A stretch of DNA of 64,000 bases, from NCBI GenBank assembly GCA_022813865.1, contig JALDZX010000001.1, forward strand, positions 1 through 64,000. The letters are read 5' to 3'. Within the stretch, counting starts at the first letter, position 1; every line of letters starts with the position of its first letter. Below are positions 793 through 64,000 of this stretch, one piece after another. Origin of the DNA: Xylographa opegraphella. Its lineage: Eukaryota. Made by a program: the position numbers and the translations under genes. The notes under the pieces were generated by a model that made no database searches, was not told where the DNA came from, and was given only the letters and a program-made list of their open reading frames with translations.

Positions 793-3700
793 TTACCAAC
801 CATCCTCGATATCGGACAACCATCGTCGAACCCCTTCCCGCAACGTGCTATCCGGCATCTCCTTGGTTCGGCATCGCCGGTTCCCATCACCGTCCGTTTT
901 GTGTGCTTCGGATTGCTCGGCAACGACGCTTCTGACAACTTCCGCAAGAGCACCAAGTACCATGTTCTTGCATTCGCTATGCGGAAGCTCCAGTGTCGGC
1001 ATGTCCATCATTGAGGCTCGGGAGATACCATCGCGAACGCTACCAGCGCGGGATCCACCACGGACACTACCGCCACGTGATGGCGATGGAGCTCGAGAGG
1101 GAACACGAGATGAGTGACCACTCTGTGCGAGGACGCGCTCCACTGCATCAATGAGGGTAGGGTCCATGTCCATCACTTGCTCCTCCACGAAGATCTCTTC
1201 CCAACCGTGTGAAAACTCGTTTTCGGCGTTGATTTTAGTCGTCGTCACGTGCTCTCCCTTCAGACCTCGACCCTTATGAGCGGCGATACTTGACGCCAGA
1301 GGTCTACGACGTAAAGTTAGACGTCGAATAGAGAAGTTGGTAGTATCGGCGATGAGGGTACTGCAAGCATGCGTCCACTCATCGCTTACAGTAGCGCTTT
1401 GATCGAGGATATTCTCCACCTCAAGACGAGACTCAGCACGCATAGATTCTTTAATTTCTTGCTTCAAAGTGGCATAAGGGCGGACAGCCTGCAGCGTAAA
1501 ATCGGGATGATAGCTTTTAAGCCAGCCAGCAACGTCCACAGGAGGATCACATTTTGCATTTTGAGCTTTTGAAGCTGTGGGAAATCCATACGGCGGATCA
1601 TGCGTATGACAAAGGCCACTCAAGTTATTCTGAGCCCGTGAAGAGTTTAGGGACGACTCTAAGGAGGATGTAAATGAACGAGTCTGTGGCATTTCGATGT
1701 CGATATAGCCGTCATCTGCGTTAAACGACATCTTGAGAGGGTTGGCTGTGGGCATCGACTTCCTCAGGATGCTTCTCGCAGACGATACAGCTCCACGTAC
1801 TGAATCGGCCTCAGACTTCAAAACGTCATCGAGAACAATAGGCTTTGGTTGATTCTTCACCATCGCATCAACAAGACCAGACACTTTGCCCTTTGGACTA
1901 CTTGACACCTCTTCTGCCATTTGTGCGAGCTTATTGACAGCAGATGATTTCCGGCAACTATTAGTAGCCCTTGTATCTGTAGAAGCATCTTGAGACGATC
2001 CCAAAGCCTCGCTATCATCGGTTGATGAGCCACGCCGATTACTCCAGAATCCGCTGACGACACTACTCCACCGGCCTGCTGATCCGCTTGTACTCACGGC
2101 AGTGCTATCAGACCTCTGCAAGGTATGGTTCAGTGCTATGGATGCAAGGCTACCGCTGCTCCCAGGCCTTGCTCTACCAGTGTCGCCAGACGAAGGCTGA
2201 ATAGCAAGACTGGCAAAGTGAGGTACGGGAATAGCAGATTGTGCTATGGTAGATGTTGAAGCCTTCCTGGTTTCACTACCCGCCGGTGGTATCACAAGAT
2301 TCGCGTTTCTCAAAGATCTGGTATCGGACGTCCTTCTGTTAGAGTTTTCGCCAGGAAAGTAATCATAGTTCTCGCTCTCGCCACCAGATCCGAGAAGTGA
2401 AAAGCTAACAGATCTAGCATGGCTGCTTCGTGTCATCTCATTCTTTTTGTTATCGGATGCTCCATTGTTTATAGTCCGGCGAAGTGATCGATTCCGTGCT
2501 ACGGGAACAGCTGGGGGACTTTCGGAATATATCTTGGGCGGTTTCAGCATATAAGGTACCAAAAGGTTCATAGAAGGACGCGAAGTGGGCAGAAATGCAG
2601 CCAGTAGAAATATGAGCCTTCTTGCCGCCATCTTATCAGTGGAGACAATTACAGTGCGCTGGTTCAAGAGGCCATCAGGTCGTTCATGACTGTGCTGCTG
2701 AAAAGGCTGTCGTCGTTTCCGCCAGAAGGCACCAAATGATTCAAGCCACGACGTGTGATATCCTAAGAAAGCAGTGATGAGATTGAAGAAGAAGAAGTTT
2801 TGATCTCTTCCTCCAGCCCATCGTCCAACCCAACGAGCTTCTTCCCGCCAAGCACCCCAACGCCCTTGACCGGTCGCAACACGGCGGGTGCGAAGTGCTC
2901 CAACAATTCGTTGCCCAATCCTCTCGGCTTGGGTTTGTATATGACTACAGGACTGAAGACACTCTGGCTGGATATGAACGCTTTGCTGGGTCGGTTGCTT
3001 CACTTTTTTGAATTTCGTATTGGTCGACTTGATCGGGGGAGCTGATAGCAAAGGCGCTAATGGGATCGATTGTTCCAAAACGTTCAAGAGTCTGAGCTTG
3101 ACTTCGAGCTCAAATACCTCCAGCGCTTTGCTGATAATATTCCAGTGCGAAAGAAGTACAGATGTATGACCGTTCAATGACGACTCGACGTTCGAACTCA
3201 ATCCAGGGGCGCGCATGTCCATGTACCTTGAGAACATACTGGTTTCCGTGTTCCAGGATGCGCCAGGAGTAATTTCATTAAAGGAGGATCCCAGCGACGA
3301 CAAAGCATGTGGTGGTACGGGCGTCCTAAGACGAGCCGTCTGGGCCTCAGCAGGAAGTTGGATTATCACTGCCATTGCGTACATCGGTACCTTTTTCTGC
3401 TTTACGGGGGGTTTATTATGTGCCTCGGGTAAAACGCTATCATCCATCTGAGGATATCTAGATTCTTCAAGGCTTAGGCCATATTCGGGTTCTTCGGTGG
3501 CCGCATTTGCAGCGACTGGTGTTGCATCAGACAGTGGAACCGAAAAAAGTTTCGTTAACATTATAGACGATCTTGAATTGGATATGGCTCGTTGATCAGA
3601 GCCCTCGGTGCCCATAGAAGATTCGCGATTAATCTCCGCAGCACTGGTGGATCGCATCAGCGGGGTTCGCTGTCGGATAAAGCCACCAGATGACAATGGT

Positions 3701-4467
3701 CGAGCATTATGTATATTACTATCGACCAGGCCAGGCTCATCCGGTGCTTTCCTAGGTAATACATGGAGTTTTGTACCAGGTCCAATGCGAAAGCCAGGCG
3801 CACCAAACATGCAGCCGAGAAGGGCATCAACATCTTCCCTAGCCTCTCGAGCAAGACGCCCTTGTGTAGTTTCTGCGCCATTCGAAGGTAAGTCGAAAGT
3901 TGATTGTCGAATCCTGGATTCTACATGAAAGGTCCTATGTCGGGAGTCGGAAGAATGAGGGGATGTTGGTGAAGAAGGCAGAATCTGTGCACTCTGGAAG
4001 ATCGAGGAGCTGGGGGTATGATGGCGTCGAGGTGTTGCAGCATAGGGAGATCTGGCTTTCGTTTTACTGGAAGCTTGGCCCTGCTGATCGGCAGGCTCAT
4101 ATTCGTGGGGAGACAATCCAGTGCCGGTCGTGTGGGCCACTTGCGGCGGCCTTGAGTCGTACAACACCTGAGGATGATGATAACTAGAGTTGGCGTCCTG
4201 TGCAATAATGACACGGATATCTGCAGGATACTGGATATCTAGATGCCCCCGATCATCATAATCTGCTGCCTCACGGGCGTTTGCCGGCAATCGTGCGCCA
4301 TGAATGGTCAAGCTGTTCTGCTGACTGGATCGAAGTGCAGCTGCCTCTGGGAACAGCAGATCTCGTGTGTGTGCCTCCTCCGTGACCGATTCAAGGGGCG
4401 TTTGAGGTCGAGATGAATTGTGCTGACTGAAGGTGGAGGCTGCACTCTGGAAGAGTCGACCGAGCAT
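793..4467 (-). CDS. LST4: Folliculin-interacting protein (FNIP/Lst4-like), subunit of the Lst4-Lst7 (FNIP-FLCN) GAP for Gtr2/RagC
   Basis: Single-exon ORF of about 1224 aa; first ATG at 4467 (MLGRLF). FNIP_N/longin-like motifs DIRVIIAQD, LLGCMFG, GTKLHVLP; middle block WREEARW...FFFNLITAFLG..TSW and QRTVIVSTDKMAARRLIFLLAAFLP; C-terminal VAGWL..YHPDFTLQAV. Confidence 0.8.
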   Translation of the reverse strand: MLGRLFQSAASTFSQHNSSRPQTPLESVTEEAHTRDLLFPEAAALRSSQQNSLTIHGARLPANAREAADYDDRGHLDIQYPADIRVIIAQDANSSYHHPQVLYDSRPPQVAHTTGTGLSPHEYEPADQQGQASSKTKARSPYAATPRRHHTPSSSIFQSAQILPSSPTSPHSSDSRHRTFHVESRIRQSTFDLPSNGAETTQGRLAREAREDVDALLGCMFGAPGFRIGPGTKLHVLPRKAPDEPGLVDSNIHNARPLSSGGFIRQRTPLMRSTSAAEINRESSMGTEGSDQRAISNSRSSIMLTKLFSVPLSDATPVAANAATEEPEYGLSLEESRYPQMDDSVLPEAHNKPPVKQKKVPMYAMAVIIQLPAEAQTARLRTPVPPHALSSLGSSFNEITPGASWNTETSMFSRYMDMRAPGLSSNVESSLNGHTSVLLSHWNIISKALEVFELEVKLRLLNVLEQSIPLAPLLSAPPIKSTNTKFKKVKQPTQQSVHIQPECLQSCSHIQTQAERIGQRIVGALRTRRVATGQGRWGAWREEARWVGRWAGGRDQNFFFFNLITAFLGYHTSWLESFGAFWRKRRQPFQQHSHERPDGLLNQRTVIVSTDKMAARRLIFLLAAFLPTSRPSMNLLVPYMLKPPKIYSESPPAVPVARNRSLRRTINNGASDNKKNEMTRSSHARSVSFSLLGSGGESENYDYFPGENSNRRTSDTRSLRNANLVIPPAGSETRKASTSTIAQSAIPVPHFASLAIQPSSGDTGRARPGSSGSLASIALNHTLQRSDSTAVSTSGSAGRWSSVVSGFWSNRRGSSTDDSEALGSSQDASTDTRATNSCRKSSAVNKLAQMAEEVSSSPKGKVSGLVDAMVKNQPKPIVLDDVLKSEADSVRGAVSSARSILRKSMPTANPLKMSFNADDGYIDIEMPQTRSFTSSLESSLNSSRAQNNLSGLCHTHDPPYGFPTASKAQNAKCDPPVDVAGWLKSYHPDFTLQAVRPYATLKQEIKESMRAESRLEVENILDQSATVSDEWTHACSTLIADTTNFSIRRLTLRRRPLASSIAAHKGRGLKGEHVTTTKINAENEFSHGWEEIFVEEQVMDMDPTLIDAVERVLAQSGHSSRVPSRAPSPSRGGSVRGGSRAGSVRDGISRASMMDMPTLELPHSECKNMVLGALAEVVRSVVAEQSEAHKTDGDGNRRCRTKEMPDSTLREGVRRWLSDIEDGW

Positions 4468-4884
4468 CTTCAAGGGCTAAGGTGACTTTGCAGTAGGTGT
4501 CTATGTATCAGGAAAGAATTTCAGTCCGAACATGTTGTCGCCCACAGCGCAGGCCCGCCGTAGCCATTTTCCAAGCCTGATTTGAGGTGGCCAGCTTGGC
4601 TGTAGGCTCTTCCGTACGAACTCCGAGGAGCTCCGCAAATGACAGTGTTTGCGTTTCAGTTACCGTATCGAGTCCAAGAGAACAAAGCACCACTTATGGA
4701 TAACGAGGTAGATGTGATGACGAGGCCACCGTGAAGATTATTACTGTGGAACCGGGTTGGAATATAGCTAATTCTGCTTCTGCGGAAGGGCGGTGAAAGG
4801 ATCCGACATCTTCCCGCCAAGCTCCTGACGCGCTGCTGCGCACGCAGGCACTAGTACCAATATGGTATGCCGCCATCGATATAA

Positions 4885-4892
4885 GTCACGTG
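4885..4892. promoter_or_regulatory. GTCACGTG E-box (Cbf1/bHLH-zip, CLEAR-like) in the divergent LST4-IML1 intergenic region
   Basis: Exact GTCACGTG near the middle of the 752-bp spacer between the two start codons. Confidence 0.5.
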
Positions 4893-5219
4893 CGCCGATG
4901 CCGGAGCCCGAGAATCTCCGTAGTGGCATCGAGCTACAATGCAGCTATTCAGAAGGTAAGTAAAGTATCAATGGATCTACCATAGGTAAGGACGATCATC
5001 TCTAACAGAGAAGCGCTTTAGGCTAGACCGGCAAGAAACACATTGCTATGCGGCGAGCGCCTGGTGATATCGATCAAGACACTACCGTTGAAACGATATG
5101 TACTACAATGTGCAAGCTTCATTTCTCTAATGCCTTGAGTGAGCTTCATTTGATCGATTTCTGGGAGCATGCTCCACCGACAGGGTAGTAGATGGTATGA
5201 AAGGGATTAGACGACCAGA

Positions 5220-8200
5220 ATGTCCGCTCAAACGTTACCATTCACGTCGAGCGGTGCCTTGCCCATACCACCACGAGAGGGTCTTCCAGGCTTTCAGTTA
5301 CGCTATGCAGGTTCTGAAAGTAACTCAAGAGCCTTTATCAAAGCAGATGGAAACCTATCAAACGAGTCTGTGACCAGCAATCCTGCAACTCTTCAGGATA
5401 CCCAACACCCTCCGATCAGTCTAGTCTGTATCCTGGGAATCCATGACGATGGTTTTTCCACAGATGATATTCTGCTGAACGCGTCACTTTTCCCTTCTGG
5501 TAGTTTACCTCTTGGTACGCCTATGCAGTTGCGTGCATTGGAGGCAGAGTCGCCCAACAGAAGCTTCAAGCAAAATGGAACCAATGATGTGAGACGCAGG
5601 CGGCCTTCTGGTAAGACTCGTGTGTCACCGTCAATACTAATCGAAAATAATGTTGGCATAGCAAGGACTCATATGAAAGGACCGCAGGAGGTTTTTTATG
5701 TCTTCAAAGCCAGGGATACAAGCTCCGAGACCACGTCTAAGCACCCTAACCTCGAGGTCCATTTTGCATTGGGAACTCTACGATACAGGCGCTAATATTT
5801 TGTCAGGTCTCTGTGTCTCAACAGATAGCTACTGCTCTTAATTTCAAGCATCGCAATCAAGTCGTGCTGACCAAGGTGAGTATTTCCAGCATTCAGGACG
5901 AATGGCTTCTAATATTGCCAATATATAAGGTCAATGAGCAAGATTTCCTGGCTTCACATGTAGAAATTACTTTTCGTGATGCATATCTCACTCGTGCAGA
6001 TATGTGGCGGCTAGTGGTTTCCGAATTGGCCAATCAATCAATGTACAAGGGCCAAAAGCTCATATTCATGGGTACCATCAAGGCACAGGTCAAGACTATT
6101 TACATGAATGGACACAAAGTACAATCAGCATTCTTCGGTGCATCGACAAAGCCTATATTCCGTAGCGAGTCGGCTCGTTATGTACTTTTTATTCAGATGT
6201 CGAAGGAGATGTGGGATTTCGATACCGATGGCACAGGCGAAATCATGTTTCATAAAGTGATCAACGGATTTCTGCCAGATCTCTTCAAGCGATGGGAAAG
6301 TATCGGTGCCCACCATCTCGTCAGCATTATCCTTTTTACACGCTTGGAATACGATAAGCGCTTGGCACCACGCTTCGCTGAAGCTATAATACATGAGAAT
6401 GAGAATGAGCTGCACTTTAAAACCAATAACCTAGCTTTCCAGGATTTTTACCGTGTACTCGTGAGCGATATGGCTTCAGGCCAGTGGAGCAACATCCTAA
6501 CACAGTTGAAGAAAGAGTTCAAGGTCTTCCTGCGGGATGTGTCAATCCGAACCGCATCGTCCGCGGAGAAGTCCTCTCTAGGTCAGGACAGCGTTCCGAA
6601 AGGGGCTCAGGATATTATCGCTGGGAGACCCACGGCAGCTACGCAAGGCAATATCCTCGAAGCCATAAGTCTTGCCTCCTCGCAGTTTTCATATGATTAC
6701 ATTGATCGTGATTTGGTTCGAACCGGACTATCAATTGTGGTAATCTCGCCTGGCACTGGAATTTTTGAGGTCGACCATGATATGCTAACCACGACCACAA
6801 ATGCCCTGATAGAAAATGGAGTTGGGATCGACCTGGTTTGTCTATCACCAATACCTCTGCATTCTGTGCCTTTATTCAAATATGTGGTTCAAGAAGAAGC
6901 TGAGCGGAATAAGGACATGATTATATGCGAACAGCATCCCGTTCGGCGGTTAGTAAGGTCATGGGGCACCTCTCACGGAGTTTCAGCCATACAACTCGGC
7001 CCCTCTGAGGAGAGCATTCAGCATGAGTCTAAGTTGAAAAGCGGAGCAACGTTACCACAGTGGCACTACGCTATCCCGCATTGGATAGACATCTCTTTTT
7101 GGAATTCACAATCTACTCATGAGAGGAGTAGTCGAGAGGTCAGAGATTCCTCGCAACAAAAGAACCTAGAAATTTTCGAATCCAAGTCTTTCGTGCCTAG
7201 AGTTAGAATGTACGAAGTACAGATGATGGGAATCATGGAAAACGAAATGGGCGATATCTCTATACCACATCTCAGTCCCTTTCTGAGCCTTCCTAGAGCT
7301 TCAAAATGGAATGCAACGAGAGCCCAAACCGATTCTCAGAGTTCTTTCAGCACCGCTTCCACAAAGCGAAGTTCACAGGGCTTCAGAACTCAGTTTTCCA
7401 GATCTGAAAGCGTCTCCTCATCTGTGTCCGCAGCCAGATCACCTAGCTTTGAAGCACCAGCAAGCACTCATGAGGATATCTTTCAATGGATGGATCATTA
7501 TGATGAGCACGTATTCAGTCACCCATATGCGTACAAGAGAACTGAGGGACAGCGGGAGACGGCTTCATTTTACTCAGTGAATACGAATAGAGGACGGCCT
7601 CAAAACATAAAATCTGGTTCTCTGACATCGAGCATATTGCCCAAAAATTTATCTAATGCGGATGAAGGCCGAGTTGGGAAGAGAGCTCAATTGCAAGTAC
7701 CAAGACCCAGTCTCGATGGTCACGGTATAAGAGCGCCAGAGTCTACCGGTAACTTCAATAAACCACACAAGCGTACGAACCTTTCTCGTCAAATCAGCTT
7801 CGGTCTCCGTGGATTTGGAGGCCCGGCACCCAAAGCTATCCCGGTCACTGAGATCTCTTCTACAAATGCTCAGTCCGGTTCTCTCCTTGGTCGTGAACTG
7901 CGACAACAGCAGTCCTCCCCCAGAGATAAAGATCCCTCACTTGTAGATAGCGATGGTGGCGATAACATATTGACAAGCTCAACCTCTGCAGATCCAAACA
8001 ACAAGTTGACACAACCACAATCTTCTGACCCTAAAGACACGGCCAAGCCTATTGTCATCAAATTACAACGAGATCCACGAATTGCACCGAGATCAATTGT
8101 GACACTGGAGGAGAATCATATCCCTGTGGGTTCGGTCACCGATGATAACGCGTCTGGGGAAGAAGCTCATAAGGCCAATTCTCGGCATGATGGTGGGCAA

Positions 8201-10711
8201 TTTATATCAAGTGCTACAGCGCCATGGTTAACAGTTCTGAATCCTTCGAATCCTCGGCGTACGTTGGAAGATTCTGCGAATCGCCTTGGTAGATGGCATC
8301 ATGTCTTTCCGCGATCAATGCGGGCATCGAATATCAAGTGGAAGTCTTTGTGCTCGCCAGCAGCCGTGCCCTTAACGACGGAAGATTTCCCAAGCGAGGA
8401 ACTGCTGAAGACTGAATATACCTCAATGGAATACCAAGTGTCAGCTCCTACAGACAACGAACTTTTCGAAGATAAGTCACCCAATGAGTGGCTGTCGAGG
8501 GATCTTATCAGTTCTCGTTTCTCCCACGGGTTTCAGATGGTGGTTGGACCACGAGTACGTGCAGTGACAGGTGATAGCTCGACCATGGATACCTTATTGT
8601 TCGTAAACACTGATGTCGGGAGCAACGGTAATATATTTTACATGTCTAAAGGAAGTGTAATTCACAAATTATCCGTCGTGGACGAAGGTGTTATTGTTAA
8701 GGAATATGCTCGCGGAGCAACCAACGGTCTAGGCCATGGAATTCAAGAATGCAAGCCTATACCATACGCCCCAGCTGTACGAACGACGCTAAGTGACCAC
8801 TATAATGTACGCAAATTTGTCATATCGACTTCACTGGAAAGGTACGACTGGAAAAGACTCGATACTTTCATAGCGGGCCATGAAGAACAACAGCTTAAAC
8901 GATACCCCGATTCGCTTCAATTTTGGCGTGCCCGGTTCGTTCTTATTCCGAAAGAGCGTCCTATTGCGAACAAAAAGATACCGTATCTATCAAACGAAGA
9001 CAATGCGGAAGAGATCAGACTAGAAGGAATCCGCAAACTCACGCAACTTTGGCAAAGGAGCAGATATATTCCTCCAGATGAGCGTCGCTTTCAAGCATCA
9101 TCCCGCCGGCGCAAAGATCTCAATCCTTTGGATATCATCTACCAGACTAGGAATCCTTCTGCAATCGTAACTGCCGAGCTCAATGGAACTCTGCTGTCGG
9201 AAGGGGATGGCACGGACTCAAAGCCCGCTCAACTTTTGCCGGAGAGCGAGCTTTTTGAACGGACAAATCTTAACCTTGCATCGATTGCCAATGCGATACA
9301 AGGCGATCACGGTGTCACGATGATGGATCGTCGTTGGCATTGGAGGCTGCATTACAACTGTTTTATTGGTATGGAGTTGACAACATGGATATTGAACACA
9401 TTTCGGGATGTCGACACACGGGAAGAAGCCGTAACACTCGGTAACGAATTGATGAAAGAAGGCCTATTCCAGCACGTAGAGCGGCGACACGCTCTTCGCG
9501 ACGGAAATTTCTTCTACCAAATTTGTAGTGAGTATCGGGTACCACGGCCTGATTCCAGGAGCAGCTGGTTCGGAAGCAGGCGGTCTGACCGGTCTGTTCC
9601 CTCGACGCCGATTACAGAAGTAATAAAGAGCAGTCCTATTGGGATTAGATCACGCGCAAATTCTATCACCGGAGGCAGTTCTGATGGAGACTCATCGACA
9701 CCGACGAGAAAGCAGACATTGGGTGTGGCCCTTTCGAAACGCTTGATCTACGACGTTGACCCACGAAAACGATCGTATCGACGCGAAGTAATCACACTAC
9801 ACTATGACCGAATAGCTTCCGCAGATGACTGCTATCATTTACGAATAGATTGGATGAGTGCCACTCCGAAACTTATAGAGGATACAATAGTTCAGTGGGC
9901 TACGTTGGCCGAGCGGAATGGATTACGTCTAGTAGAATTGCCTATCGGCGAAGCGTCGAGGATCAACGATTTGCATCCTTTTCGATCTCCTTACATGGTC
10001 AAACTCATCAAGAGTCCTCCAAACATACAGCCTCAAACATACTTTGATGCTGTATCTCTCGGCCCCAGGGCTGTCACCAGTTGGCCGTACCACAAAGCTA
10101 TATTGAAGAAGTTCAACTTTGTGCTGGATCTTGAAGCAGCAAAAGACTTTCCGCCTACAGTAGACGTCACGTACTCATGGGGCAAGCCCGACTACCAATA
10201 CCCGCAGTACATCTCGCGGGATGGGATCGTGCTCGCTCAGATCACCGACGAAGGCGACTTCCTCTTGCTGGCTAATCGGCTATACACCAAACGCAGTGCG
10301 ACCATGAAAGAGACCGGGAGACTACTGCCAAACGGCCCCGACGAGCTGAACTACACCCCACAGCGGATGCCAGCCCGAGGCATTGACTCGCCATCTGCCT
10401 CCCCTGCAATGCGGGCAACACCAGACGTTGGCTGCGTGGTCACCAGTGGCGAGATTGTAACACCGGAAACGGTAGCGTACGAGCTGGAGGCATTCTGCCA
10501 AGATGTCAAAGTATTGGAGGCTTTCTACGAGGAGGTATTGCAGAAAAAAGCGGCCTCCGGTCCTGCGACACCGCTTATGGAAAGTACTACATCAGGACTG
10601 GCAGCGCCCCCGGCATTTACTCTTCGAGATGTATCTCCGGCGGCAAGGCTTGAAACGATTGCTGAGCGACGCAAATTCCGAGCGGAAAAGGGTACATCTG
10701 AGACTGCGTAA
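5220..10711 (+). CDS. IML1: Vacuolar membrane-associated protein Iml1 (DEPDC5 ortholog; SEACIT/GATOR1 subunit)
   Basis: Exons 5220-5756, 5807-5875, 5930-10711; introns 5757-5806 and 5876-5929 are frame-consistent. Motifs FRSESAR..LFIQMSKEMWDFD, GNILEAI, RDLVRTG, PLHSVPLFKY, WKSLCSPAAVPLTT; DEP domain DRRWHWRLHYNCFIG...HVERRHALRDGNFFY. Confidence 0.96.
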
Positions 10712-14005: not shown

Positions 14006-16909
<2,904 letters not shown>

Positions 16910-17262
16910 TAGTGATACAATATCTACCATAATCGTTCCTTAGCTGTGCTTGAAGTGTTGGAGAGTCTTTTTCTGCTTGCAGAGCTAGTTTTTGGGGTAG
17001 ATAGAGTGGGATGGATACTTGCTTGGGAAAAGCTGCGTATAGACGGAGGAAATAATTTTGATCATCGATAGCTCGTCGGTTTCTATATAGCAGATCCATT
17101 TGCTCAGCAGACTGGGCGTATGCCAACTAATGATTAATGAGATTGCACACAACATACGCCGTAGCTCTGAGATTCCCGGGTAGATGATTTGCAACGCTGT
17201 TGATCACCCAACACCACTGTAATTTGTTATTTCCCGCCGCCCTTCGTGACAAATACTGGGAA

Positions 17263-18219
17263 TCAAGCATTCCCGAGCCCGAATATTCCCCCAAAGAACC
17301 CACCGCCCGCCCCTCCCGCCCCGCCCCTCCTCGCCTCGTTCTCGATCCACAGCGTCAGGAACTCGCGGTCTTGGAGCTCGGCGGGGTCGGTCAGTTTGGT
17401 GAGCTGCTGGGGTTCGCCGCGGCTGAAGGCCATGAGGGTAGGTATGGCTGTTATCTGTATTTTGATGATGGGAGATTAGTATTTGGTAGTGAGGAGGGTG
17501 GTGAGGGTGGGGAGGGTGGGGGGGAGGTTGGGAAGGAGGATTGTGATGGTGTGGTGAGGAGTGTGGCGAGGAGGGTGGTGAGGAGGGTGGTGAGGAGTGT
17601 GATGTGCTGTCCAGCTCGTAATGCCGCCTCTTCTTCCTCTTCCTCTTCCTCTTCCTCTCGTCTAGTATCCTCCATCATGAGACCTTCCCCTTCCCCCTTC
17701 CCCTCCCCCCTCCCACACATACACCCACACACGAACCCACTCACCGCAAAAATCCCCCCCACCCCCTCCGCCGCACAGTCCGGCGCATCCATCTCCACCT
17801 CCGCGAACCCGACCCCGCCCTCCCGCTCGCCGACGCCCTCCCGCTCCAGCAGCTGCAGCAGCAGGGCGCGAATGCTTTGCGAGCTGGAGTCGCTGCTGGT
17901 GGAGAGGGTGAAGAGCGCGAGGAGGGGCCGGGCGGAGGTGCTGCTGAGAGAGAGGGTGGTGGTGAGGGTGGGGAGGGAGCGGATCCTAAAGAGGGGAGGG
18001 GGAGGGGGTGGGGTTAGTGGGTGGTGGAAAATGTTAGGGTTTAGTGGGTTGGTGGAGAGGGGGGGGGAGGGGGTTATGGGGGATGGGGGGATGAGAAGTG
18101 GAGGAGACGTACGGGTCGTAGATGCGGTTGCGGGCGAGGGCGGAGGGGGTGGTGTGGAAGGTGGGTGTGTGGAGAGGCGGGAGGCGGAATAGGCGGAAAG
18201 GCAGAGGAGGCTTCTTCAT
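17263..18219 (-). CDS. Small thioredoxin-fold-like protein, probably mitochondrial; not recovered as one ORF by the track
   Basis: Exons 18219-18113, 17985-17745, 17454-17263 join in frame. Basic presequence-like N-terminus, RNRIYDPIR, GVGEREGGVGFAEVEMDAP, cis-Pro-type ITAIPTLMAF, FLTLWIENEARRGG. Confidence 0.75.
17630..17656. repeat. (TCTTCC)n microsatellite within an intron
   Basis: Tandem hexamers visible at 17630-17656. Confidence 0.8.
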
Positions 18220-18621
18220 TGTGGGTGCTTGGGAGGTGCCGCGGGCTGGAGGTCGTGGGGCCGTGTGGGAGTGGTTATATCGGGTGGAAGTACACCGTTG
18301 CGCGGTAGTGGAGAGATGGGATGCGGCACGTTTCTATGCGGGATTGCGGGTGTGACGTGAATTTTCAGGGCGTGGAAGCTTGGGGTAGGGCTGAGAAGTT
18401 TCAGGGGTCTCTCAGGGTAGAAGGTGTGGGGAATTTCTCGATACTGGCACATCATTGGGCGAAGGTTGATGCAGCCCATACCGATGAGCATCGAGGTTTA
18501 GTCACACACTACAAGCACTGAAGTCGAGCGGTCCAGAAAGTCATTGTATGTACACAAAAGTATAAGCATTACTATTAGACTGCCATAATTACATCACACC
18601 CTATCAACAAAGCGAACCACT

Positions 18622-22344: not shown

Positions 22345-24339
22345 ATGGCCGGAGCTTTCGTGGGCAACGGAGGCGATCCTCGCATGAGTGGCGACGCGGC
22401 GGCCGTGGATACCTACCCCGGCTACATCAGTCCCCAGCAGCGTCTTCTGCACGACCCCAACGTCTCCTTCGAGGAGTATCGATACTACGCCGACAAGACG
22501 CGCGCCGAGGAGAAAGCGCTCAAGGAGACCGAGGTCGGGAGCACCGGCTTCATGCAGATTCTCTTCCCCCCCAAGTCGAGCCCCAAGCCGGTCTACAACT
22601 CGCAAGGTGCCGTGGGCGAGTTCGACGAGAAGGGCAACGCCCGTCGTCAAAGCTCCGTCAACGCCAACCTGGCAGACATGTCCACCCGCCAAGTCATCAC
22701 CATGGAGGAATGGACCAACGCCTCGCGCGCCTTCCGCACCGCCACCTGGGCCGCGTGCTTCTATCTCATCACCACCGATATCTTGGGGCCCTTTGGGGTT
22801 GGGTACGTGCGCCATGTTGACGCCCGGTCGCGGTGCGATTGAACCTCCGCTGATACGTGCAGCTTTTCCATCGGTACACTCGGGTGGGGTCCGGGCATCG
22901 GCCTTTTCACGGTCTTCGGTCTCATGGCAGGATAGTAAGTCTCATGATTGTGATTGTAGTATTGTCAACCAATCATACTGATCTCTGTTTCAGCTCGGGC
23001 TACCTGTTGTGGAGGATATTCTTGGGACTCGACTCGTATGAGTTTCCAATGAAGAACTACGGTGACCTGGCCTTCCGTTTATTTGGTACCGTTCCCCGCT
23101 ATATCGTCAACATCCTCCAGAGTATCCAATTGATCTGCGGGGTGGGCCTGATTGTCATCAGCAACGGACAGGCAATTTCGCAGGTCTCACAATTCAAACT
23201 TTGTTATGCCATCTGCTGTTTGCTGTGGTGTATCGTTGGCTTTGCCGTCGGTCAGGTACGAACGCTCGCGAAATATGGTTGGCTGGCAAACGCGGCCATT
23301 TGGATGAACCTAATGATCATGTTCATCTCCATGGGCGTCATTGCGCACAGCCCTCCGAATTACCCTATTTCCGTCCTCGGCTCCGCAGGCGCCGCTACCG
23401 TTCCAGCGGACATCACCCCAGATCCAACAACGGGCATCTATCCGCCTGTGAAGCATTACAGTGGCCTTCCCAACCCAGGCAGCTTGATCGGTTCCATCAA
23501 CGGGCTGATGCAAGGCGTGTACGCGTACGGAGGCGCGCAGCTTTTCATCGAGTTTATGGCGGAGATGAAGCGACCGCACGACTTCATCAAGGCCATGTGG
23601 GGTGCCCAGTTCTTCATCTACACATGCTACATGGTTTACGGATGCTTTGTGTACTATTACCAGGGACAGTGAGTGCGTCCGAGTCCGAGGTAGTATGTTC
23701 CCTCTGCTAACACTCGACGACAGGTACTCCTACCAGATTGCTTACCAAGGTGTCAGCCCCTATGGGTGGCAGACCGCCGGGAACATGATCGCCGTGATCA
23801 GTGGGATCATCGCCGCCGGTCTGTACGGCAACATCGGTATCAAGGTCCTGTACAACAACATCCTCATGGATCTGTTCCGATTTCCCCCTTTGACCACCCA
23901 CAAGGGAAAAGTCCTCTGGGCCATCATCGTCCCCATCTACTGGACCATTGCCTTCATCATCGCGGCCTCGATACCCGACTTCTTCGGCCTCGTCTCCGTC
24001 GTCGCCGCCTTCTGCATCATCCAATTCTGCTACTCCTTCCCCCCAGCCTTGGCCCTGGGCTTCTTCATCAAGAAGCACGCCATGCGCGCCGACGAAGGCT
24101 TTGACCCCGCCACCGGCCGCGTCATCCGTCACGACGGCGGCATCAAGCGCTGGATCCGTGGCTTCACCGCCGGCCCGTTGTGGATGAACATCTTCAACAT
24201 CTTCTACCTTGGGGGCGCGCTCACGACTTTCATCCTCGGCGCGTATGCAGCTATCGATGGCATCGCCGAGGCTTTCGCGGCGAACCCGCAGCTTAATGCC
24301 TTTTCGTGCAATTCGCCGCTGAATCTCAATGCCTCGTAG
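22345..24339 (+). CDS. Amino-acid permease (AAAP/Aa_trans, Mtr-like)
   Basis: Motifs TATWAACFYLITTDILGP, NYGDLAFR, YAYGGAQLFIEFMAEM, IAAGLYGNIGIK; many TM segments. Three introns at about 22803-22863, 22935-22993 and 23669-23723. Confidence 0.92.
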
Positions 24340-57990: not shown

Positions 57991-60900
57991 TTAATCGTCT
58001 GGAATCTCTGGCACCTCCGAGTCGAACTCATGCTCGTCATCCATAATGATAAACTCCTTGTGAGTTTCATCTTCCTGGACGGGTCCAAAGAGCCGCAGCA
58101 GCTCTGACAGCGACAGTTTCGCAAGCCGCGTGCCGTCGTCACCCATCGCCGAGTCGATGTCGGCCTGTTTCGCGATCTGCATGTTCTGAAGCTTCTCATC
58201 GACCGTGTTCTTGACCACAAACCTGGTGATGTGTGTCTCCTCTGTTTGGCCGATTCGAAATACGCGGCAAAACGCTTGTTGTTCGACGGCATTGTTCCAC
58301 CACAAGTCAATGCACACGACGCGGGAGGCCTAATGCGATGTGTTTAGTATTTCTTCAGCGTGGGTATTTGAAGGACTGTACCATTGTCAAGTTGAGCCCA
58401 ACACCACCGCACTTCAGGCTGGCAATCAATATCTTCTTTTCCTTATTATCACGGAACCTCCGGATTGCTTTGTCTCGGGCGTCGTGCGTCATTTTTCCAT
58501 GATACTATGTAGCGATGTTAGCCCCAAAGTTCTACCAAGTCAAGCAATATCACTTACGCAGCAATGGCCCCATCCCCGGGAGTAGCACATACGTCCGATT
58601 ATTTTGATCCTGCGTGGTGTTAGTGAACTGTGCAGAAGAGCATTTAGTCTATCTCACATCATCTGGAACTGTGTGAAGATGATAATCTTAGATTTTGGCT
58701 CTTGCTTAGCCCATTCTTCGATCTGCGCCACTAGGGCTGCAGTTTTGGCGGATGGCAAGATTGACCCTTCAACATCTAGCCACTTCATATCCTCATCCAC
58801 ATTTCGCCGCCGTGGGACCCTCGTCTCTTGACCGTCCTGCGAAGTATTGGTAATATCTGATCCGCCGAGTTCTTTTATCCCGTTGGCAGGGCGCGTTTCA
58901 GCGTAAATCGCACCACACTCCCGGCATGTTGCATTGTCTTCGCCGCTAGTGGCAGCCTCAATAGCCATAGCATTCAAGCATTCCTGGAATCGTCAGCAAA
59001 ACAAGCTCAGGTGGCCTTCGTCCTGGGATATAGATCGTCAATACCTTGCAATAAAGATGGAGACAGCTTGTGACCCATGGTTCCGTAGGAACGTCTTTAC
59101 ATTGATGGCACAAACTACGAGTGGTCAATGCATCCCACTTTTTGCTGTTTGCAAGTTCCCGCAGCATCCTCCGGAATTTAAAAACGAGAGGACGTGATTG
59201 TTCTGAAATCGGGTCATCGGCCTCCGGCGTATCATCGGGGCGTCGTGTTTCTGCTGCCTCTGTAGGCTTATCCCTCGCCTGGATCATTTTTCGCATTTGT
59301 GCCAGCATATTCCTATCGTTAGCGGTTTCCTTATCTGTCGCTGCTGTGACTTCGTGAGCTGTGGCCTCCCATAGTCGTTGGACATCTTCCAATTCGAAGA
59401 GATCTTCCATTGTTTCTTGAAGCATAAACGTATGTGCAGTCAGTTGCTAATGAATCCATTGATTAGCGTTCCTCATCTACAATCGGAATCGAGCTGAACT
59501 CACCCGTAGACGTAGCAACATGACTAGTATTGAGTTATATGACTTCTCCAGAACGCCTCGGGATTGCCATGAATTTATTCGCTGGATGAACCTTGCACGG
59601 ACAATTTCATAGATAGACCGTTCCACAGGTGAAAAATCAATAAGTATGGTACGCTCATGATTCTCTGGTAGCTTCACAAGTGGCGCACCGAAGAGAGTAT
59701 CAGTATACACTCTCCTTATCATGAAGCGCCTCAGAAAAGTATGCAGCCGCTCATCGCCTAGGTCATTAGACCTATCACAAAAGTTTTCACAAAAGACCTC
59801 GTAATTTCCAGTATGCCGTACTCGAAGAAACTTCCAGTATGGGAAAAGCTCACGAGGACTATTTTGGATGGGTGTACCAGACACTGCCCATCGATGATTG
59901 GCCAGAAGGCCTCGACAAGCTTTGGAAATCTGCGACTTATGGTTCTTGATGACTTGTGCTTCATCAAGGATAACACGATGGAAACGAATGGTATGAAGCG
60001 GGCCGCGGCTATATTCAAAGTGATCCTTCCACCAGGCCATTTTACTTTCGTGAGACATAAGCTCCTTTGGCGGCTGGTATTTGGGATATGATTTAGAAAT
60101 CTCTCCATATGTACTGAGTACAACGTCGGCTTGCCGCAGCAATGATAGAACACCTGAGCCAGCGATTCTGGAGCCAGAATGGAAGCGTACTACAGCGCCT
60201 ATGGCGTCTGATTCAGCGTGCATGGCGAGCTCTTCCTCCCATTGTGAGATCAACGACGGCGTTGCCACGATCAATGTTGTCTTACAGGGTTCGCCAAGCG
60301 GTGGTTTGTTAGCTAAGATTAGTGCAATAAGCATGATGGTTTTCTGTGGCTATTAGATTGAGTAAGCAAAGATGAGTGCTAAACATACCCCGAAACCCAT
60401 GGAGTCACAGAGCATGCCACCATAAGGCTCATCATCACCCGTTTCCCTCTCGACCATCCAGGCCGAACCCTGAACTTGAAAGTGCATCAAGGCAGACTTC
60501 ATCCCTTTGAGCAACCATTTCCCGTTGCCGTCTGGACGAACTTTCCTCAGTCCTAATACCTTGGTAGCTTTCAAAACATGCTGCATCTCTCGAGAGGCCA
60601 TGCGTTGGTCTTCAAGCGGAACAGATGCCACGAGCTGCTTCAGAGCATCAACTTTGCGCTTTTCGGTCATGACTGGTGCTTCTTGCTTGTTAAGATTGGC
60701 ATTAGCATCGGTATAGACATTGTTCGAAAGCAGACTTCTAACGTCGCGGAACAACGTAGGCTTTTGTGATTTTGAATTCGACTTTTTCTCATTGGCAGTT
60801 TTAGCGGCAGCCGGTCTCGTCTTGGGAAGCTTTGCTTCACTGCCTTTTGGTCCCATGCTGGAAGCAGTCTTCTGAGTATCCCTCTTTCCTCCTGAACGAC

Positions 60901-62269
60901 TCTTCTTGGTTGCCTTCTCGTTCTTGGCTATCTCCTCTTCAATACCTGCCAAGCAAGCATCATTCAAGTCCATTGCTTCCGATCTCTTTTTGCCTCGTAC
61001 TTTCGCACGCTTGGATTGGGCCTCGTTACCGAGGAGAGGCCCGCCTTCATCTTCTGTCTCTGCTGTGGCAAAATGAGCGCGCTTTCGAGAGGATGCTCCG
61101 GCCGACATGTTAGGTACAAAGAGCCCATCACCGTCGCCTTCAGCACTACTTTCACCTCTATTACCAGCACTAGCGGCTCGTAGGCGCTCGATCTCGTTGC
61201 GCTTAAGACGAGCCTTCTCAGTTCTCTGCGCCTTGATAAACTCGATCTCGTCCTCCCATTTGAGATTTCCAGCACGTTTCTTAGCATTGTATCTTTTCTT
61301 GAGCCCAGCAAATTTGGCGGCCGGATCTGCATCACGTTCGGCTTCGTCCGCATCACCGTGCATCCAAGCGTTTGGGTCGTTCTCTGCAGAACGGGGGCCT
61401 TGTCCAGAAGGAGGGCCTCGCACAGGAGAAGGGCCCAGCACAGGAGGAGGGCTCTGCACAGGAGGAGGGCCCTGCACAGGAGGAGCGCCCTGCACATGAG
61501 GAGCGCCTTGGACAGGAGGAGCGCTTTGCACAGGAGCTGGCGGAGCAACACCTTGCCGCCTAAAGATATTCGCAGCGCCACCAGCGACAGGCTTCCCCGT
61601 AATCCTCTCCGCCAGCTCCGCCTGAATCTCACGCATACGAGCATTTTGCGCCGCCGTGAGCGGCTGCCTCGACTTTTTCTTGGTCAGTAGCGTCCTCTGT
61701 AGAGTATTTTGATTTGGCATAGTGGCAGGCGGTAATACGATAGGCGTATCGGTCACATTAAAGGCAGGGCCTTTGGAGATGTCGTCCTCGTCATCCGGTA
61801 TGATGATTGTGCCGTTGATGCGATCGGTCCATACAAATTCCAATTGACTATCGTCCTCCTTCTTGACTTCGACTTCGTCCTGGGCAACCGCGACGACAAC
61901 ATCGGGAGGGGCTTGCGGGTTGATGATCCTCGTAGTTTCCACAACATCGTTCATGTTAATTTCAAGAGGCTCCTCTTTGATCCTGGTCGCTAGAGTCTCC
62001 ACAGATGTGTCAGGTTGGCTAGTCGGTTCCCATTCGTCAATATCTATGATATCGACACCCTCTGGCATCATAAACTTTGGCTTGCCTGCGTGTATCCGAG
62101 GCGAGTCATCGGGTGTAGGCGACTCTGAAAAATCACGTATCGGGGAGGGCGCCAGGAACATATCGTCCACGTTGACTTCCGCTTCATCAATCTCAGAAGG
62201 AGGGTGTGTTATCTCGTTCTGAGTGCCCATGGACTCGTCCATAGGGTCATAACCAATGCCAAATGCCAT
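57991..62269 (-). CDS. SNF2-family ATPase with an inserted RING finger (Rad5/Rad16/Uls1-like group)
   Basis: ATG at 62269 (CAACC-ATG-G). Motifs GGMLCDSMGFG|KT, QWEEE, RVILDEAQ, SGTPIQN; RING CHQC...CLHLYCKEC...CREC; SLKCGGVGLNLT, WWN, QAFCRVFRIGQ. Six introns. Confidence 0.92.
61394..61545 (-). repeat. Coding 18-bp minisatellite (about 8 copies) encoding PPVQG(A/P) repeats
   Basis: Unit is approximately GCACAGGAGGAGGGCCCT on the + strand; protein reads APVQSAPPVQGAPHVQGAPPVQGPPPVQSPPPVLGPSPVRGPP. Confidence 0.9.
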
Positions 62270-64000
62270 GGTTGTGATTGCCCTAACACTTTCGATCAGC
62301 ATCAAATCTCCAAGAACCGGCCCCAAATAGTAGTCAATTTACGGGTTTGACAACGTATTGACCTAGGTTGCACCAGGTAATGAGTAGCCGAAACTTTCCA
62401 GTGAACTCACAAAACGAGCATGCAAAGGTACAACATGGAACTTGGTATGACTTGTAAACAAGCAATGGTAGCTTGAAGGAAGGATCAGGCATCAAAGCTA
62501 CATAAAGTCTCTCCTCGAGTATGAATTTTCGAGTCCAATGTATGGTGGACTCAAAAACCGCAGTAGTAATAAAGACCGAGAAATTTATATGAGATCGCTA
62601 GATGTAATTGAGCAGGAAAAGGACACGAGGCCTAAAGGACCAAGAAAGGGGTAGAATATCGATTCAACCAAGGACACAGAAGGAAGCATAAGTCATCTGT
62701 CTGGAGTGAGATACGGTAGGCATCAAGCCAAGGAGACCGTAGGGTATGCGTAGCCTGGTAGAAGGAAGGTAAAAGATTTCTCTTATGTTGGACGATGAAA
62801 ACGAGTCTTGAAACACTGAACGTAGATGTCTGAGATGTCCCAAGTGATTTTCAGAGAGCAATGGCTACACGGAAAGGACAACGACTATCACACAATGATG
62901 TGAGGAAAGGCGGATAGTGGATGTCTACCTTATCAAATTGAGCTCGTGATAGGTATCCTGTGAAGTGTAGAAGATAGACTCGTTTGGGTCAGAAATAAGA
63001 CGTGAAGCAAGAAGAAAAGTAGCGTGGATGAGAAACAACCGAGACCACAAACAGAGGGAGATCTGTATGTACCCTAAGCCAAAGATGCGGATTTGGCAAC
63101 GGGGCCAAAGTGATTTTCAGTAGAGTGAAGACCGATTGGATACGTCTTTAGTAGCCCTGCACCAATCTTCAATGAGTCAGCTCGACAGCTATCGATTGAT
63201 GGGATGGGTACAACATTCCTCATGAAGTTTCAAACAAGATTGATTCACTCAGTGTAGACAATTTGTTATGGAGAAGTAAGAATGCCAACGGTGGAGCAAA
63301 GGGCTCGGTAACAAATTCAGAAGAGTTAACTGGATCGCCAGAAGAAATCAATGAAGGTACTGGAAGAATTACCAAAGGGTTCAGAAGAAGTCGTAGATTT
63401 GTATGTCGCCTTGGCGGATGCCTGAGCTTAGTACGACCAGCAATGGCCGGATCGGATGGCCAAAGGGAGAGGTTACAACAGGGAAGATCTTTAATTTAGA
63501 TACGGGAATTGCGCTCTCCCGCGAGGAAATAGCTCAGTTAATCGAATATCGAAGAAAGAGCAAGTAAGAAATGAAGTAATAGAAGTGATGATCGCTGGAG
63601 GCTCCAGATGAGATTGCCTTGACGCCCTTGGCGTAGGCTTGAAGGTACAGAATAGCAAGCGTCAGTGAGTCTGATCGTAATGATTATGCTTTGATAAGAT
63701 GAAGTGAAGAGAACTGCCGAAGAAGAGAGCGAAGCATCGAGCTTGTCAGGTAGAAGGTGAAGTCGAAGAGAAATTAGGTAGAGTACGTTGCAGTTCAAAG
63801 GCCGTGAAGTCGATCGATGTGGTGATATAAGCGATACTGGAGTTGGTGGATGAGAATCCATTCTGCTCGGTGATATAGTTCAAGAAAAAGAGTTTCCTCA
63901 GAGCTTCGTAGCGGCGACCAGTTTATAACCGGCTCACAGTCATGCTCCTAACCGTGCAAAGACAAGGGAAGTATATCTCACATTCCCACACCACCACCAT

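Follow-up and report, generated by a model that had tools for sequence, protein, structure and literature searches.

Results

LST4/FNIP and IML1/DEPDC5 orthologues in the window

The window, a 64,000-nt stretch of contig JALDZX010000001.1 from the lichen fungus Xylographa opegraphella, carries an LST4/FNIP orthologue on the minus strand and an IML1/DEPDC5 orthologue on the plus strand. The LST4 gene (793..4467, −) is a single intron-free, complete open reading frame (ORF) of 1224 amino acids (P0001). The original prediction had named this ORF Lst4/FNIP, and the identity is confirmed by a Pfam match to FNIP_N (PF14636; E 3.7e-16, 60.8 bits against a cut-off of 25). The window LST4 protein can be aligned over its full length with 15 relatives, each a single ORF, from the sampled loci (alignment A2), and all 16 aligned orthologues match FNIP_N (best E 2.1e-33). 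FNIP_M is matched by three of the 16 aligned proteins (best E 0.00013) and FNIP_C by none; the window protein matches neither in Pfam. FNIP2 chains are the only PDB matches of the LST4 profile, and they are weak (E 0.0025–0.0067) and confined to the N-terminal part; phmmer with the single LST4 sequence gave no match among PDB sequences. The LST4 start codon is supported by the alignment, whose consensus begins with MLGRL, as does the window protein. By orthology, the LST4 product would form a complex with Lst7/FLCN and act as a GAP towards Gtr2/RagC.

The IML1 gene (5220–10711, +) contains two short introns and corresponds to two ORFs, 5220–5795(+) and 6002–10711(+). The database protein P0004 (1795 aa, iml1 of Xylographa opegraphella) is 100% identical across the searched region, and its comparison with the genomic sequence defines the coding sequence as 5220–5756, 5807–5875 and 5930–10711. 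Exon 1 (5220..5756), which is colinear with P0004, has a weak Pfam match to IML1_N_fung (E 0.0099, under the cut-off). Exon 2 (5807..5875) is flanked by intron 1 (5757–5806) and intron 2 (5876–5929). Exon 3 (5930..10711) holds the IML1 (PF12257; E 2.3e-109), DEP (PF00610; E 8.9e-24) and DEPDC5_CTD (PF19418; E 1.1e-6) domains in the order typical of the family. These matches and the identity to a protein named iml1 bear out the earlier assignment of the gene as Iml1/DEPDC5. M1 is invariant in the IML1 alignment, which supports the start codon.

Divergent spacer and E-box

The LST4 ATG at 4467(−) and the IML1 ATG at 5220(+) are arranged head-to-head and diverge across a short common spacer (4468..5219; 752 bp, GC 0.50), as had been predicted, and both start codons are backed by the alignments. 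A motif search also located the expected GTCACGTG E-box in the spacer (4885..4892), 335 bp ahead of the IML1 ATG and 418 bp ahead of the LST4 ATG. The octamer by itself is at chance level in the window, with two copies against 1.9 expected and at least two copies in 62 of 100 shuffles; the other copy (1244–1251) falls in the LST4 coding sequence. Given the site frequencies of the window itself, the probability of at least one site in 752 bp is 0.11 for CACGTG, 0.06 for TCACGTG and 0.02 for the octamer.

The CLEAR element is a 10-bp palindrome, GTCACGTGAC, that usually occurs in more than one copy near the transcription start site. The spacer site reads GTCACGTGCG, agrees with CLEAR at 8 of 10 positions and is present in one copy in the spacer, and the palindrome GTCACGTGAC is absent from the whole 64,000-nt window. 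The description of the site as CLEAR-like is thus not upheld. The spacer GTCACGTG fits RTCACRTG, which we take to be the Cbf1/CDEI-type consensus and on which its Cbf1 assignment is based. Its most plausible reading is that of a Cbf1/CDEI-type site for a fungal group-B bHLH factor, not of an animal MiT/TFE CLEAR element. The motif may be functional, with a factor of this type as the candidate ligand. The spacer could not be aligned to the regions upstream of LST4 in six other Lecanoromycete-like loci. Among all seven Lecanoromycete-like sources including the window, these regions are likewise unalignable except between the loci L016 and L019, and therefore no positional homology of the E-box can be claimed.

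Linkage of IML1 and LST4 across Pezizomycotina

The conservation of the gene pair was surveyed in 72 IML1 loci from metagenomes, which form 46 lineage clusters at a nucleotide identity of at least 93% and were placed to class by an IML1 tree and by the names of the nearest database proteins. LST4 is present in 27 of the 72 loci by tblastn and in the identical 27 by profile HMM, which speaks against a diverged LST4 missed by tblastn in the remaining loci. Of the 46 clusters, 17 have LST4 no more than 10 kb from IML1; where both flanks extend for 7 kb or more (18 clusters), nine contain LST4 and nine lack it. By class, clusters with LST4 number 6 of 16 in the Dothideomycetes, 5 of 6 in the Eurotiomycetes and 7 of 11 in the Lecanoromycetes (the last including the window). 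The linked Dothideomycetes include L052 and L068 (99% and 95% identical to Aureobasidium pullulans and Parastagonospora nodorum, respectively), and the linked Eurotiomycetes include L036 (99% identical to Penicillium decumbens). The linked Lecanoromycetes occupy tree rows adjoining Pleopsidium, Puttea and Pseudocyphellaria. The well-sampled lineages without linkage include Bipolaris-like ones that are close to linked lineages.

LST4 is the sole neighbour family of IML1 that is found in all three sampled classes. The runner-up, a Na/Ca-exchanger gene, is observed in nine Lecanoromycete clusters and one Eurotiomycete cluster, and the window's own neighbours at 11–25 kb each occur in at most one sampled locus. 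The linkage is therefore old and better kept than other adjacencies, the sole control being IML1's other neighbours. Judged from these loci, the closeness of IML1 and LST4 is an ancient Pezizomycotina linkage, older than the divergence of Dothideomycetes, Eurotiomycetes and Lecanoromycetes from one another. A literature search found no published description of this linkage in fungi; PMC11836306 lacks terms for synteny and adjacency, and no publication joining Cbf1 with Lst4 was found.

Read-based contigs at 80% likeness were also obtained from three DNA runs of one study, of which one is the probable source of the window and the other two gave only short IML1 coding pieces. One such contig of 25,988 bases, from one of these two runs, carries an IML1 relative, with no LST4 piece among those listed from it; since LST4 is less conserved, the contig is uninformative about the layout in relatives.

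Variable orientation and a probable local rearrangement

The orientation of the pair varies among the 17 linked clusters. Ten are tandem with IML1 ahead of LST4 (IML1>LST4), five are tail-to-tail and two are tandem in the reverse order (LST4>IML1), and none is head-to-head. It follows that a bidirectional promoter common to both genes is not the conserved element. Of the microsynteny that had been proposed, the adjacency itself stands, and the divergent arrangement with one common promoter does not. The gap between the two genes ranges from 1.0 to 5.9 kb, and the layouts number four once the window is counted. The Penicillium-like locus L036 is tail-to-tail with nothing in its 1.6-kb gap. Elsewhere the gap is occupied by a Tc5/DDE transposase (L022), a GH31 gene (L026 and L053) or a peptidase S28 gene (L003). 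The possibility that the gap holds another conserved gene was considered and rejected, as no ORF family recurs there.

An SNF2-family gene (58657..62338, −) lies approximately 48 kb downstream of IML1 in the window. Its homologue is found 4.7–9.2 kb upstream of IML1 in eight other Lecanoromycete-like lineages, and the gene therefore marks a rearrangement. The head-to-head layout in Xylographa looks like a derived local rearrangement, as seen against sampled loci of which none is a close relative of the window or belongs to its own subclass in the IML1 tree.

TCACGTG sites in the promoters of other lineages

Upstream of LST4, 7 of 17 lineages carry TCACGTG in the first 1 kb; for IML1, 7 of 36 lineages have it no more than 250 bp from the estimated start. 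At five of these IML1 loci, the site is positioned 115–231 bp before the start as judged by the nearest annotated protein. The full palindrome GTCACGTGAC is present in the LST4 promoters of L016 (−327) and L019 (−294). Intergenic-like DNA from the same loci contains eight TCACGTG sites in 133 kb (0.060 per kb). Relative to this background, the motif is 4- to 7-fold enriched ahead of both genes, with binomial tails of 2.6e-5 for LST4 and 9.3e-7 for IML1. The distance windows were chosen after the data had been seen, and the lineages are interdependent, L016 and L019 being sisters and L036 and L053 both being Penicillium-like. The motif is absent from 10 of 17 LST4 promoters and 29 of 36 IML1 promoters, and most lineages have it at just one of the two genes. 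No CACGTG was found within 2 kb in the nine Lecanoromycete-like IML1 upstream regions examined. The motif recurs at both genes, and the promoters are alignable only between sister lineages.

Discussion

Iml1/DEPDC5 and Lst4/FNIP, opposing regulators of the growth kinase TORC1, anchor two GAP complexes that drive the Gtr/Rag heterodimer in opposite directions, and how their amounts are balanced in cells has been little studied. We favour, at a probability of about 0.6, an explanation that combines an old linkage, a derived head-to-head layout and a Cbf1/CDEI-type E-box. Both window genes are true orthologues, encoding scaffold subunits of the two Rag/Gtr GAP complexes, with IML1/DEPDC5 assigned to SEACIT/GATOR1 and LST4/FNIP to Lst4-Lst7/FLCN-FNIP. 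In the ancestor the two genes most likely stood in tandem, in the order IML1>LST4. Roughly half of the well-sampled lineages still have them close together, local inversions and insertions notwithstanding. The Xylographa-like head-to-head arrangement would be a derived local rearrangement and not the conserved state. Sites of the GTCACGTG type recur in the LST4 and/or IML1 promoters across these fungi, and the single copy in the window is placed so that it could serve either gene or both. IML1 and LST4 may be co-regulated to some degree.

The original prediction went further and envisaged a bidirectional promoter in which a CLEAR-like site and a MiT/TFE-like bHLH factor co-regulate the opposing Rag GAP genes and set their balance. 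This model is in keeping with head-to-head starts that enclose a single GTCACGTG in a 752-bp spacer, with the recurrence of TCACGTG at both genes elsewhere and with the two LST4 promoters that carry GTCACGTGAC. However, none of the 17 other linked clusters is head-to-head, the motif stands at only one of the two genes in most lineages, and the site GTCACGTGCG is a single 8-of-10 match at chance frequency. The FLCN-FNIP complex controls TFEB in animals; to our knowledge, MiT/TFE is an animal family that is not known from fungi. The orthologues named in the available part of the review PMC9363479 are from animals only. Taken together, we regard the model as very unlikely. Another route to coupling would be transcription across the pair, whereby IML1 read-through in tandem loci or convergent transcription in tail-to-tail loci damps the LST4 promoter and yields reciprocal expression. 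The ten tandem IML1>LST4 clusters would suit such a mechanism, as would the 1.5–2.0 kb gaps in L001, L011, L014 and L033, in which the longest ORFs have 95–157 aa and none is of a recurrent family, and the short tail-to-tail gap of the Penicillium-like L036. No single interference mechanism fits both the head-to-head window and the insertions of 4–5 kb elsewhere, and we give this route a very low probability too.

A neutral origin deserves more weight, although we consider it doubtful: IML1 and LST4 would be early Pezizomycotina neighbours that have not yet separated, and neither the layout nor the E-box would mean anything for joint regulation. Rearrangement in these fungi usually proceeds by small inversions that leave genes near one another (mesosynteny), and neutral survival through such inversions would yield the same variable spacing and orientation, which counts against the favoured explanation. 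The range of gaps and layouts, the unrelated genes and transposon inserted between the pair in four lineages, the loss of linkage in 9 of 18 well-sampled clusters and the chance frequency of the octamer in the window all agree with a neutral relic. Against it, LST4 alone among IML1's neighbours is kept in all three classes, the pair still lies within 6 kb after at least three changes of layout, and TCACGTG is over-represented ahead of both genes. Should the neutral reading be true, the adjacency is an ordinary relic and the head-to-head layout is incidental. In a further reading, selection would keep the two genes side by side in Pezizomycotina as a Rag-GAP module, in which closeness and a shared Cbf1-type E-box input at either promoter couple the dosage of the TORC1-inhibiting and the TORC1-activating GAP scaffold, and the Xylographa head-to-head layout would be its most compact form, with one site for both genes. 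This reading is speculative, and we think it improbable.

On the sequence comparisons made here, the closeness of IML1 and LST4, though not their head-to-head layout, is old and widely kept in filamentous ascomycetes. A distance of a few kilobases in three classes, combined with a recurrent bHLH site, provides a concrete lead for coupling of the two arms at the level of transcription, and the lead is open to tractable fungi (Penicillium, Aspergillus, Parastagonospora and Aureobasidium). The pair would also offer a clean case for asking whether selection or plain inheritance underlies the conserved microsynteny of functionally linked fungal genes.

The yeast GAL1-GAL10 and Aspergillus niiA-niaD pairs resemble the window in that two genes of one pathway start divergently at a distance below 1 kb and enclose a factor site, which here is a candidate. 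In those pairs the divergent layout is itself conserved and experiments have established shared regulation, whereas the divergent IML1/LST4 layout is seen in one genome only. The animal CLEAR network (GTCACGTGAC; TFEB/TFE3/MITF/HLH-30) shares with the window an identical GTCACGTG core and targets in the lysosome/vacuole-TORC1 axis but differs at two of the ten positions and in copy number. The window GTCACGTG also resembles the fungal TCACGTG(A) E-box (Cbf1/CDEI in yeasts) in fitting RTCACRTG.

Conserved pairs of functionally linked neighbours in fungi, such as Rad16/Rad7 and a pyridoxine biosynthesis pair in Pezizomycotina, are described in the accessible part of a survey by Davila Lopez et al. 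2010 (PMC2871058). Like these pairs, IML1 and LST4 are non-homologous genes of one pathway that are neighbours across distant Pezizomycotina; unlike these divergently transcribed pairs, their orientation is not conserved and is divergent only in the window. A word search of the PMC2871058 text and six supplementary files gave no occurrence of IML1, LST4, DEPDC5, FNIP, their yeast ORF names or folliculin. In A. niger, TCACGTGATC is a top ATAC-seq footprint motif, and its 269 genes are enriched in ribosome and translation terms and not in TORC1 regulators, according to the portion of PMC8419926 at hand. A word search of 11 of the 13 PMC8419926 supplementary files, whose tables may use locus tags, gave no entry for iml1, lst4 or folliculin. 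In the same portion of that report, one TCACGTGATC footprint drove a reporter gene. Several sites in the loci related to the window read CACGTGAT, like the A. niger motif.

Gene identities and structures

Two long genes in the window diverge out of one 752-bp spacer, as the original prediction had described. The minus-strand gene (793–4467) is an ORF of 1224 aa with a Pfam FNIP_N match (E 3.7e-16). The plus-strand gene matches the Pfam families IML1 (E 2.3e-109), DEP (E 8.9e-24) and DEPDC5_CTD (E 1.1e-6) and is 100% identical across the searched region to a 1795-aa database protein, the vacuolar membrane-associated protein iml1 of Xylographa opegraphella. Mapping of this protein onto the window sequence gives a CDS at 5220–5756, 5807–5875 and 5930–10711 that is interrupted by introns of 50 and 54 nt. 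The profile matches confirm a head-to-head pair of LST4/FNIP and IML1/DEPDC5, and we regard both identities as close to certain.

The window LST4 protein is alignable over its full length with 15 single-ORF relatives and starts with their consensus, MLGRL; the ORF is complete. FNIP_N is matched in all 16 aligned LST4 proteins and FNIP_M in 3 of them. Against solved structures, the LST4 profile finds FNIP2 chains only, with weak scores (E 0.0025–0.0067). Four annotated IML1 models from the database (P0266, P0267, P0276 and P0274; 2164–2361 aa) additionally contain either a SET domain (PF00856) or domains of a FAD monooxygenase, and are probably fusions with neighbouring gene models. FNIP domains are found in none of the listed IML1 database models.

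Linkage of IML1 and LST4 across fungi

IML1 loci were collected by scanning metagenome contigs with 16 aligned IML1 proteins and keeping 10 kb per side, which yielded 72 loci, each oriented so that IML1 is on the plus strand. A tblastn search with the window LST4 located LST4 in 27 of the 72 loci, and an LST4 profile HMM returned the identical 27 loci and no extra ones. With lineages defined as clusters at ≥93% nucleotide identity, the loci collapse into 46 clusters, 17 of which carry LST4. Absence is scorable only in the 18 clusters whose sequence extends 7 kb or more to each side of IML1, the other flanks being too short; LST4 is present in nine of these and absent from nine (L017, L020, L023, L028/L030, L038/L039, L047, L048, L056 and L069).

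In an IML1 tree (FastTree, 55 rows, of which 30 represent loci and 25 are named proteins, with short-flank clusters without LST4 left out), the linked lineages spread over three classes. The Dothideomycetes contribute L052 (99% identity to Aureobasidium pullulans), L068 (95% to Parastagonospora nodorum), L033, L057, L044 and L032, and the Eurotiomycetes contribute L036 (99% identity to Penicillium decumbens), L053, L026, L022 and the deep-branching L072. Among the Lecanoromycetes, L001 and L011 adjoin Pleopsidium, L014 adjoins Puttea, L003 adjoins Pseudocyphellaria, and L016 and L019 are sisters. The Xylographa/Lambiella/Trapelia group of the tree contains the window and none of the 30 locus representatives.

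As a control, all ORFs of at least 70 aa from the loci and the window were grouped into neighbour families, with shadow ORFs inside IML1 or LST4 removed. LST4 is the commonest IML1 neighbour (17 clusters plus the window). By class, it occurs in 6 of 16 clusters of Dothideomycetes, 5 of 6 of Eurotiomycetes and 7 of 11 of Lecanoromycetes, the window being included in the last. A two-exon Na/Ca-exchanger gene ranks second (10 clusters, of which 9 are Lecanoromycete and 1 is Eurotiomycete) and is encoded on the minus strand, 1.1–3.5 kb upstream of IML1. Farther upstream, at 4.7–9.2 kb, an SNF2-family gene is found in 8 Lecanoromycete-like clusters. No further true neighbour family in this control extends to more than two clusters of different classes, and three more entries in the class tally are antisense ORFs within LST4. 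The genes that follow IML1 in the window (11–25 kb) are found in at most one locus.

Because LST4 is the commonest neighbour and is present in three classes, the IML1–LST4 adjacency outlasts neighbouring pairs, a comparison that the original prediction had proposed and that was made here against the other neighbours of IML1. The counts support a non-random linkage, which is very probably ancient. Selection acting on the linkage itself appears unlikely. The original prediction knew of no description of such linkage in fungi, and full-text literature searches found none either, within the limits of the library searched. Terms for synteny, adjacency and neighbours are absent from PMC11836306, and a survey of gene pairs conserved in eukaryotes (PMC2871058) has neither IML1 nor LST4 in its text or six supplementary files.

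Two other features of the IML1 surroundings were observed. L020 (Lecanoromycete-like) and L056 (Dothideomycete-like), both without a nearby LST4, have several common ORF families downstream of IML1, which may represent a second recurrent IML1 neighbourhood. In the window, two adjacent ORFs (22944–24339, plus strand), ∼12 kb downstream of IML1, match Aa_trans (PF01490), the amino-acid transporter family to which the Avt vacuolar transporters of yeast and SLC38A9 of animals belong; this gene is not near IML1 in the other loci.

Orientation and probable rearrangement of the gene pair

The linked clusters adopt three layouts: tandem IML1>LST4 (10 clusters; 1.0–3.1 kb between matches), tail-to-tail (5 clusters; 1.6–5.4 kb) and tandem LST4>IML1 (2 clusters; 1.8 and 5.9 kb). 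The head-to-head layout, with its 752-bp spacer, is seen here in the window only and in 0 of the 17 linked clusters. The mechanism originally proposed, a single bidirectional promoter read through a CLEAR-like site, is thus not what evolution kept. Tandem IML1>LST4 is shared by the two Dothideomycete groups and two groups of Lecanoromycetes, so parsimony favours it as the inferred ancestral layout.

The long gaps carry lineage-specific inserts, namely a GH31 gene in L026 and L053, a peptidase S28 gene in L003 and a transposase in L022. The L022 insert, in a Paecilomyces-like Eurotiales locus, is a Tc5/pogo-like DDE transposase ORF of 628 aa (16612–18495, minus strand; DDE_1 and HTH_Tnp_Tc5) between IML1 and LST4. 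No sizeable ORF separates the two genes in the Penicillium-like L036 or in the short tandem loci.

In the window, the SNF2-family gene is located ∼48 kb downstream of IML1 (58657–62338, minus strand), and no Na/Ca-exchanger homologue is present within the 64 kb. Because the usual Lecanoromycete upstream neighbours are missing beside the window IML1, the best reading of its head-to-head layout is that an older linked pair was rearranged locally. The displaced SNF2 gene would mark the rearrangement behind the present layout.

The window begins with a high-copy repeat (1–371), and the summed contig depth in the DNA run that is the probable source of the window is 10312 in bin 1–400 versus 160.6 elsewhere. 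Short variant contigs and loose ends are numerous at ∼28–371, and short matches also occur in two other runs.

The E-box in the spacer and in other lineages

The GTCACGTG site of the original prediction is located in the spacer at 4885–4892, 335 bp ahead of the IML1 ATG and 418 bp ahead of the LST4 ATG. Its frequency in the window is no higher than chance, with 2 copies in 64 kb versus 1.9 expected and at least 2 copies in 62 of 100 shuffles. At window rates, a 752-bp stretch has a probability of 0.11 of containing at least one CACGTG, 0.06 of at least one TCACGTG and 0.02 of at least one octamer. Two further CACGTG cores, at 1074–1079 and 1244–1251, lie within the LST4 coding region towards its 3′ end, one of them being the second GTCACGTG copy.

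TCACGTG is found in the 1 kb preceding LST4 in 6 of 16 clusters (L014 at −324, L016 at −327, L019 at −294, L026 at −400, L036 at −811 and L057 at −532), or in 7 of 17 with the window. At IML1, 7 of 36 lineages have the motif within 250 bp of the estimated start (L022, L029, L033, L036, L048, and L053 and L072 with two sites each), the window being a miss. Relative to the nearest annotated proteins, it lies 115–231 bp ahead of the IML1 start codon in L036, L053, L022, L033 and L029. Background in the same loci is 0.060 per kb in intergenic-like DNA (8 sites in 133 kb) and 0.056 per kb in coding-like DNA. The excess is 4- to 7-fold, with binomial tails of 2.6e-5 for LST4 and 9.3e-7 for IML1, from distance windows picked after the data were seen and from related lineages. 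Despite these cautions, the excess seen at LST4 and IML1 alike constitutes a genuine lead. TCACGTG recurs upstream of both genes, but the motif is absent from most LST4 and IML1 promoters sampled. CACGTG is found within 2 kb in none of nine Lecanoromycete-like IML1 upstream regions examined, and LST4 upstream regions show no alignment except between sister lineages.

A CLEAR-like identity of the spacer site was not borne out, given the chance-level octamer and 0 copies of the full CLEAR palindrome GTCACGTGAC across the 64-kb window. The full GTCACGTGAC does occur upstream of LST4 in the sisters L016 and L019. MiT/TFE factors are known from animals and are not known from fungi. Passages of a review of the family name animal orthologues only (PMC9363479). 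Several comparative-locus sites read CACGTGAT. The spacer site fits RTCACRTG, the Cbf1/CDEI consensus of yeasts. In a study of Aspergillus niger, TCACGTGATC ranks with the top ATAC-seq footprint motifs and marks 269 genes enriched in ribosome and translation terms, and one TCACGTGATC footprint drove a reporter gene (PMC8419926). Nothing on Cbf1 together with Lst4 was found in the full-text literature searched. We give a functional E-box slightly less than an even chance.

In the interpretation that we favour, to which we give a probability of roughly 0.6, the locus holds an ancient linked pair that is locally rearranged here, and a Cbf1-type E-box recurs in the promoters of the two genes.

Possible IML1 5′-UTR features are observed at 4939–5021 (plus strand), comprising an upstream ATG (4939), GTAAGT (4956), CTAAC (5002) and AG (5020–5021). 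The signals at 4956–5021 would fit a possible intron of ∼66 nt. If this intron is real, the IML1 TSS would lie before 4956, at most about 70 bp from the E-box.
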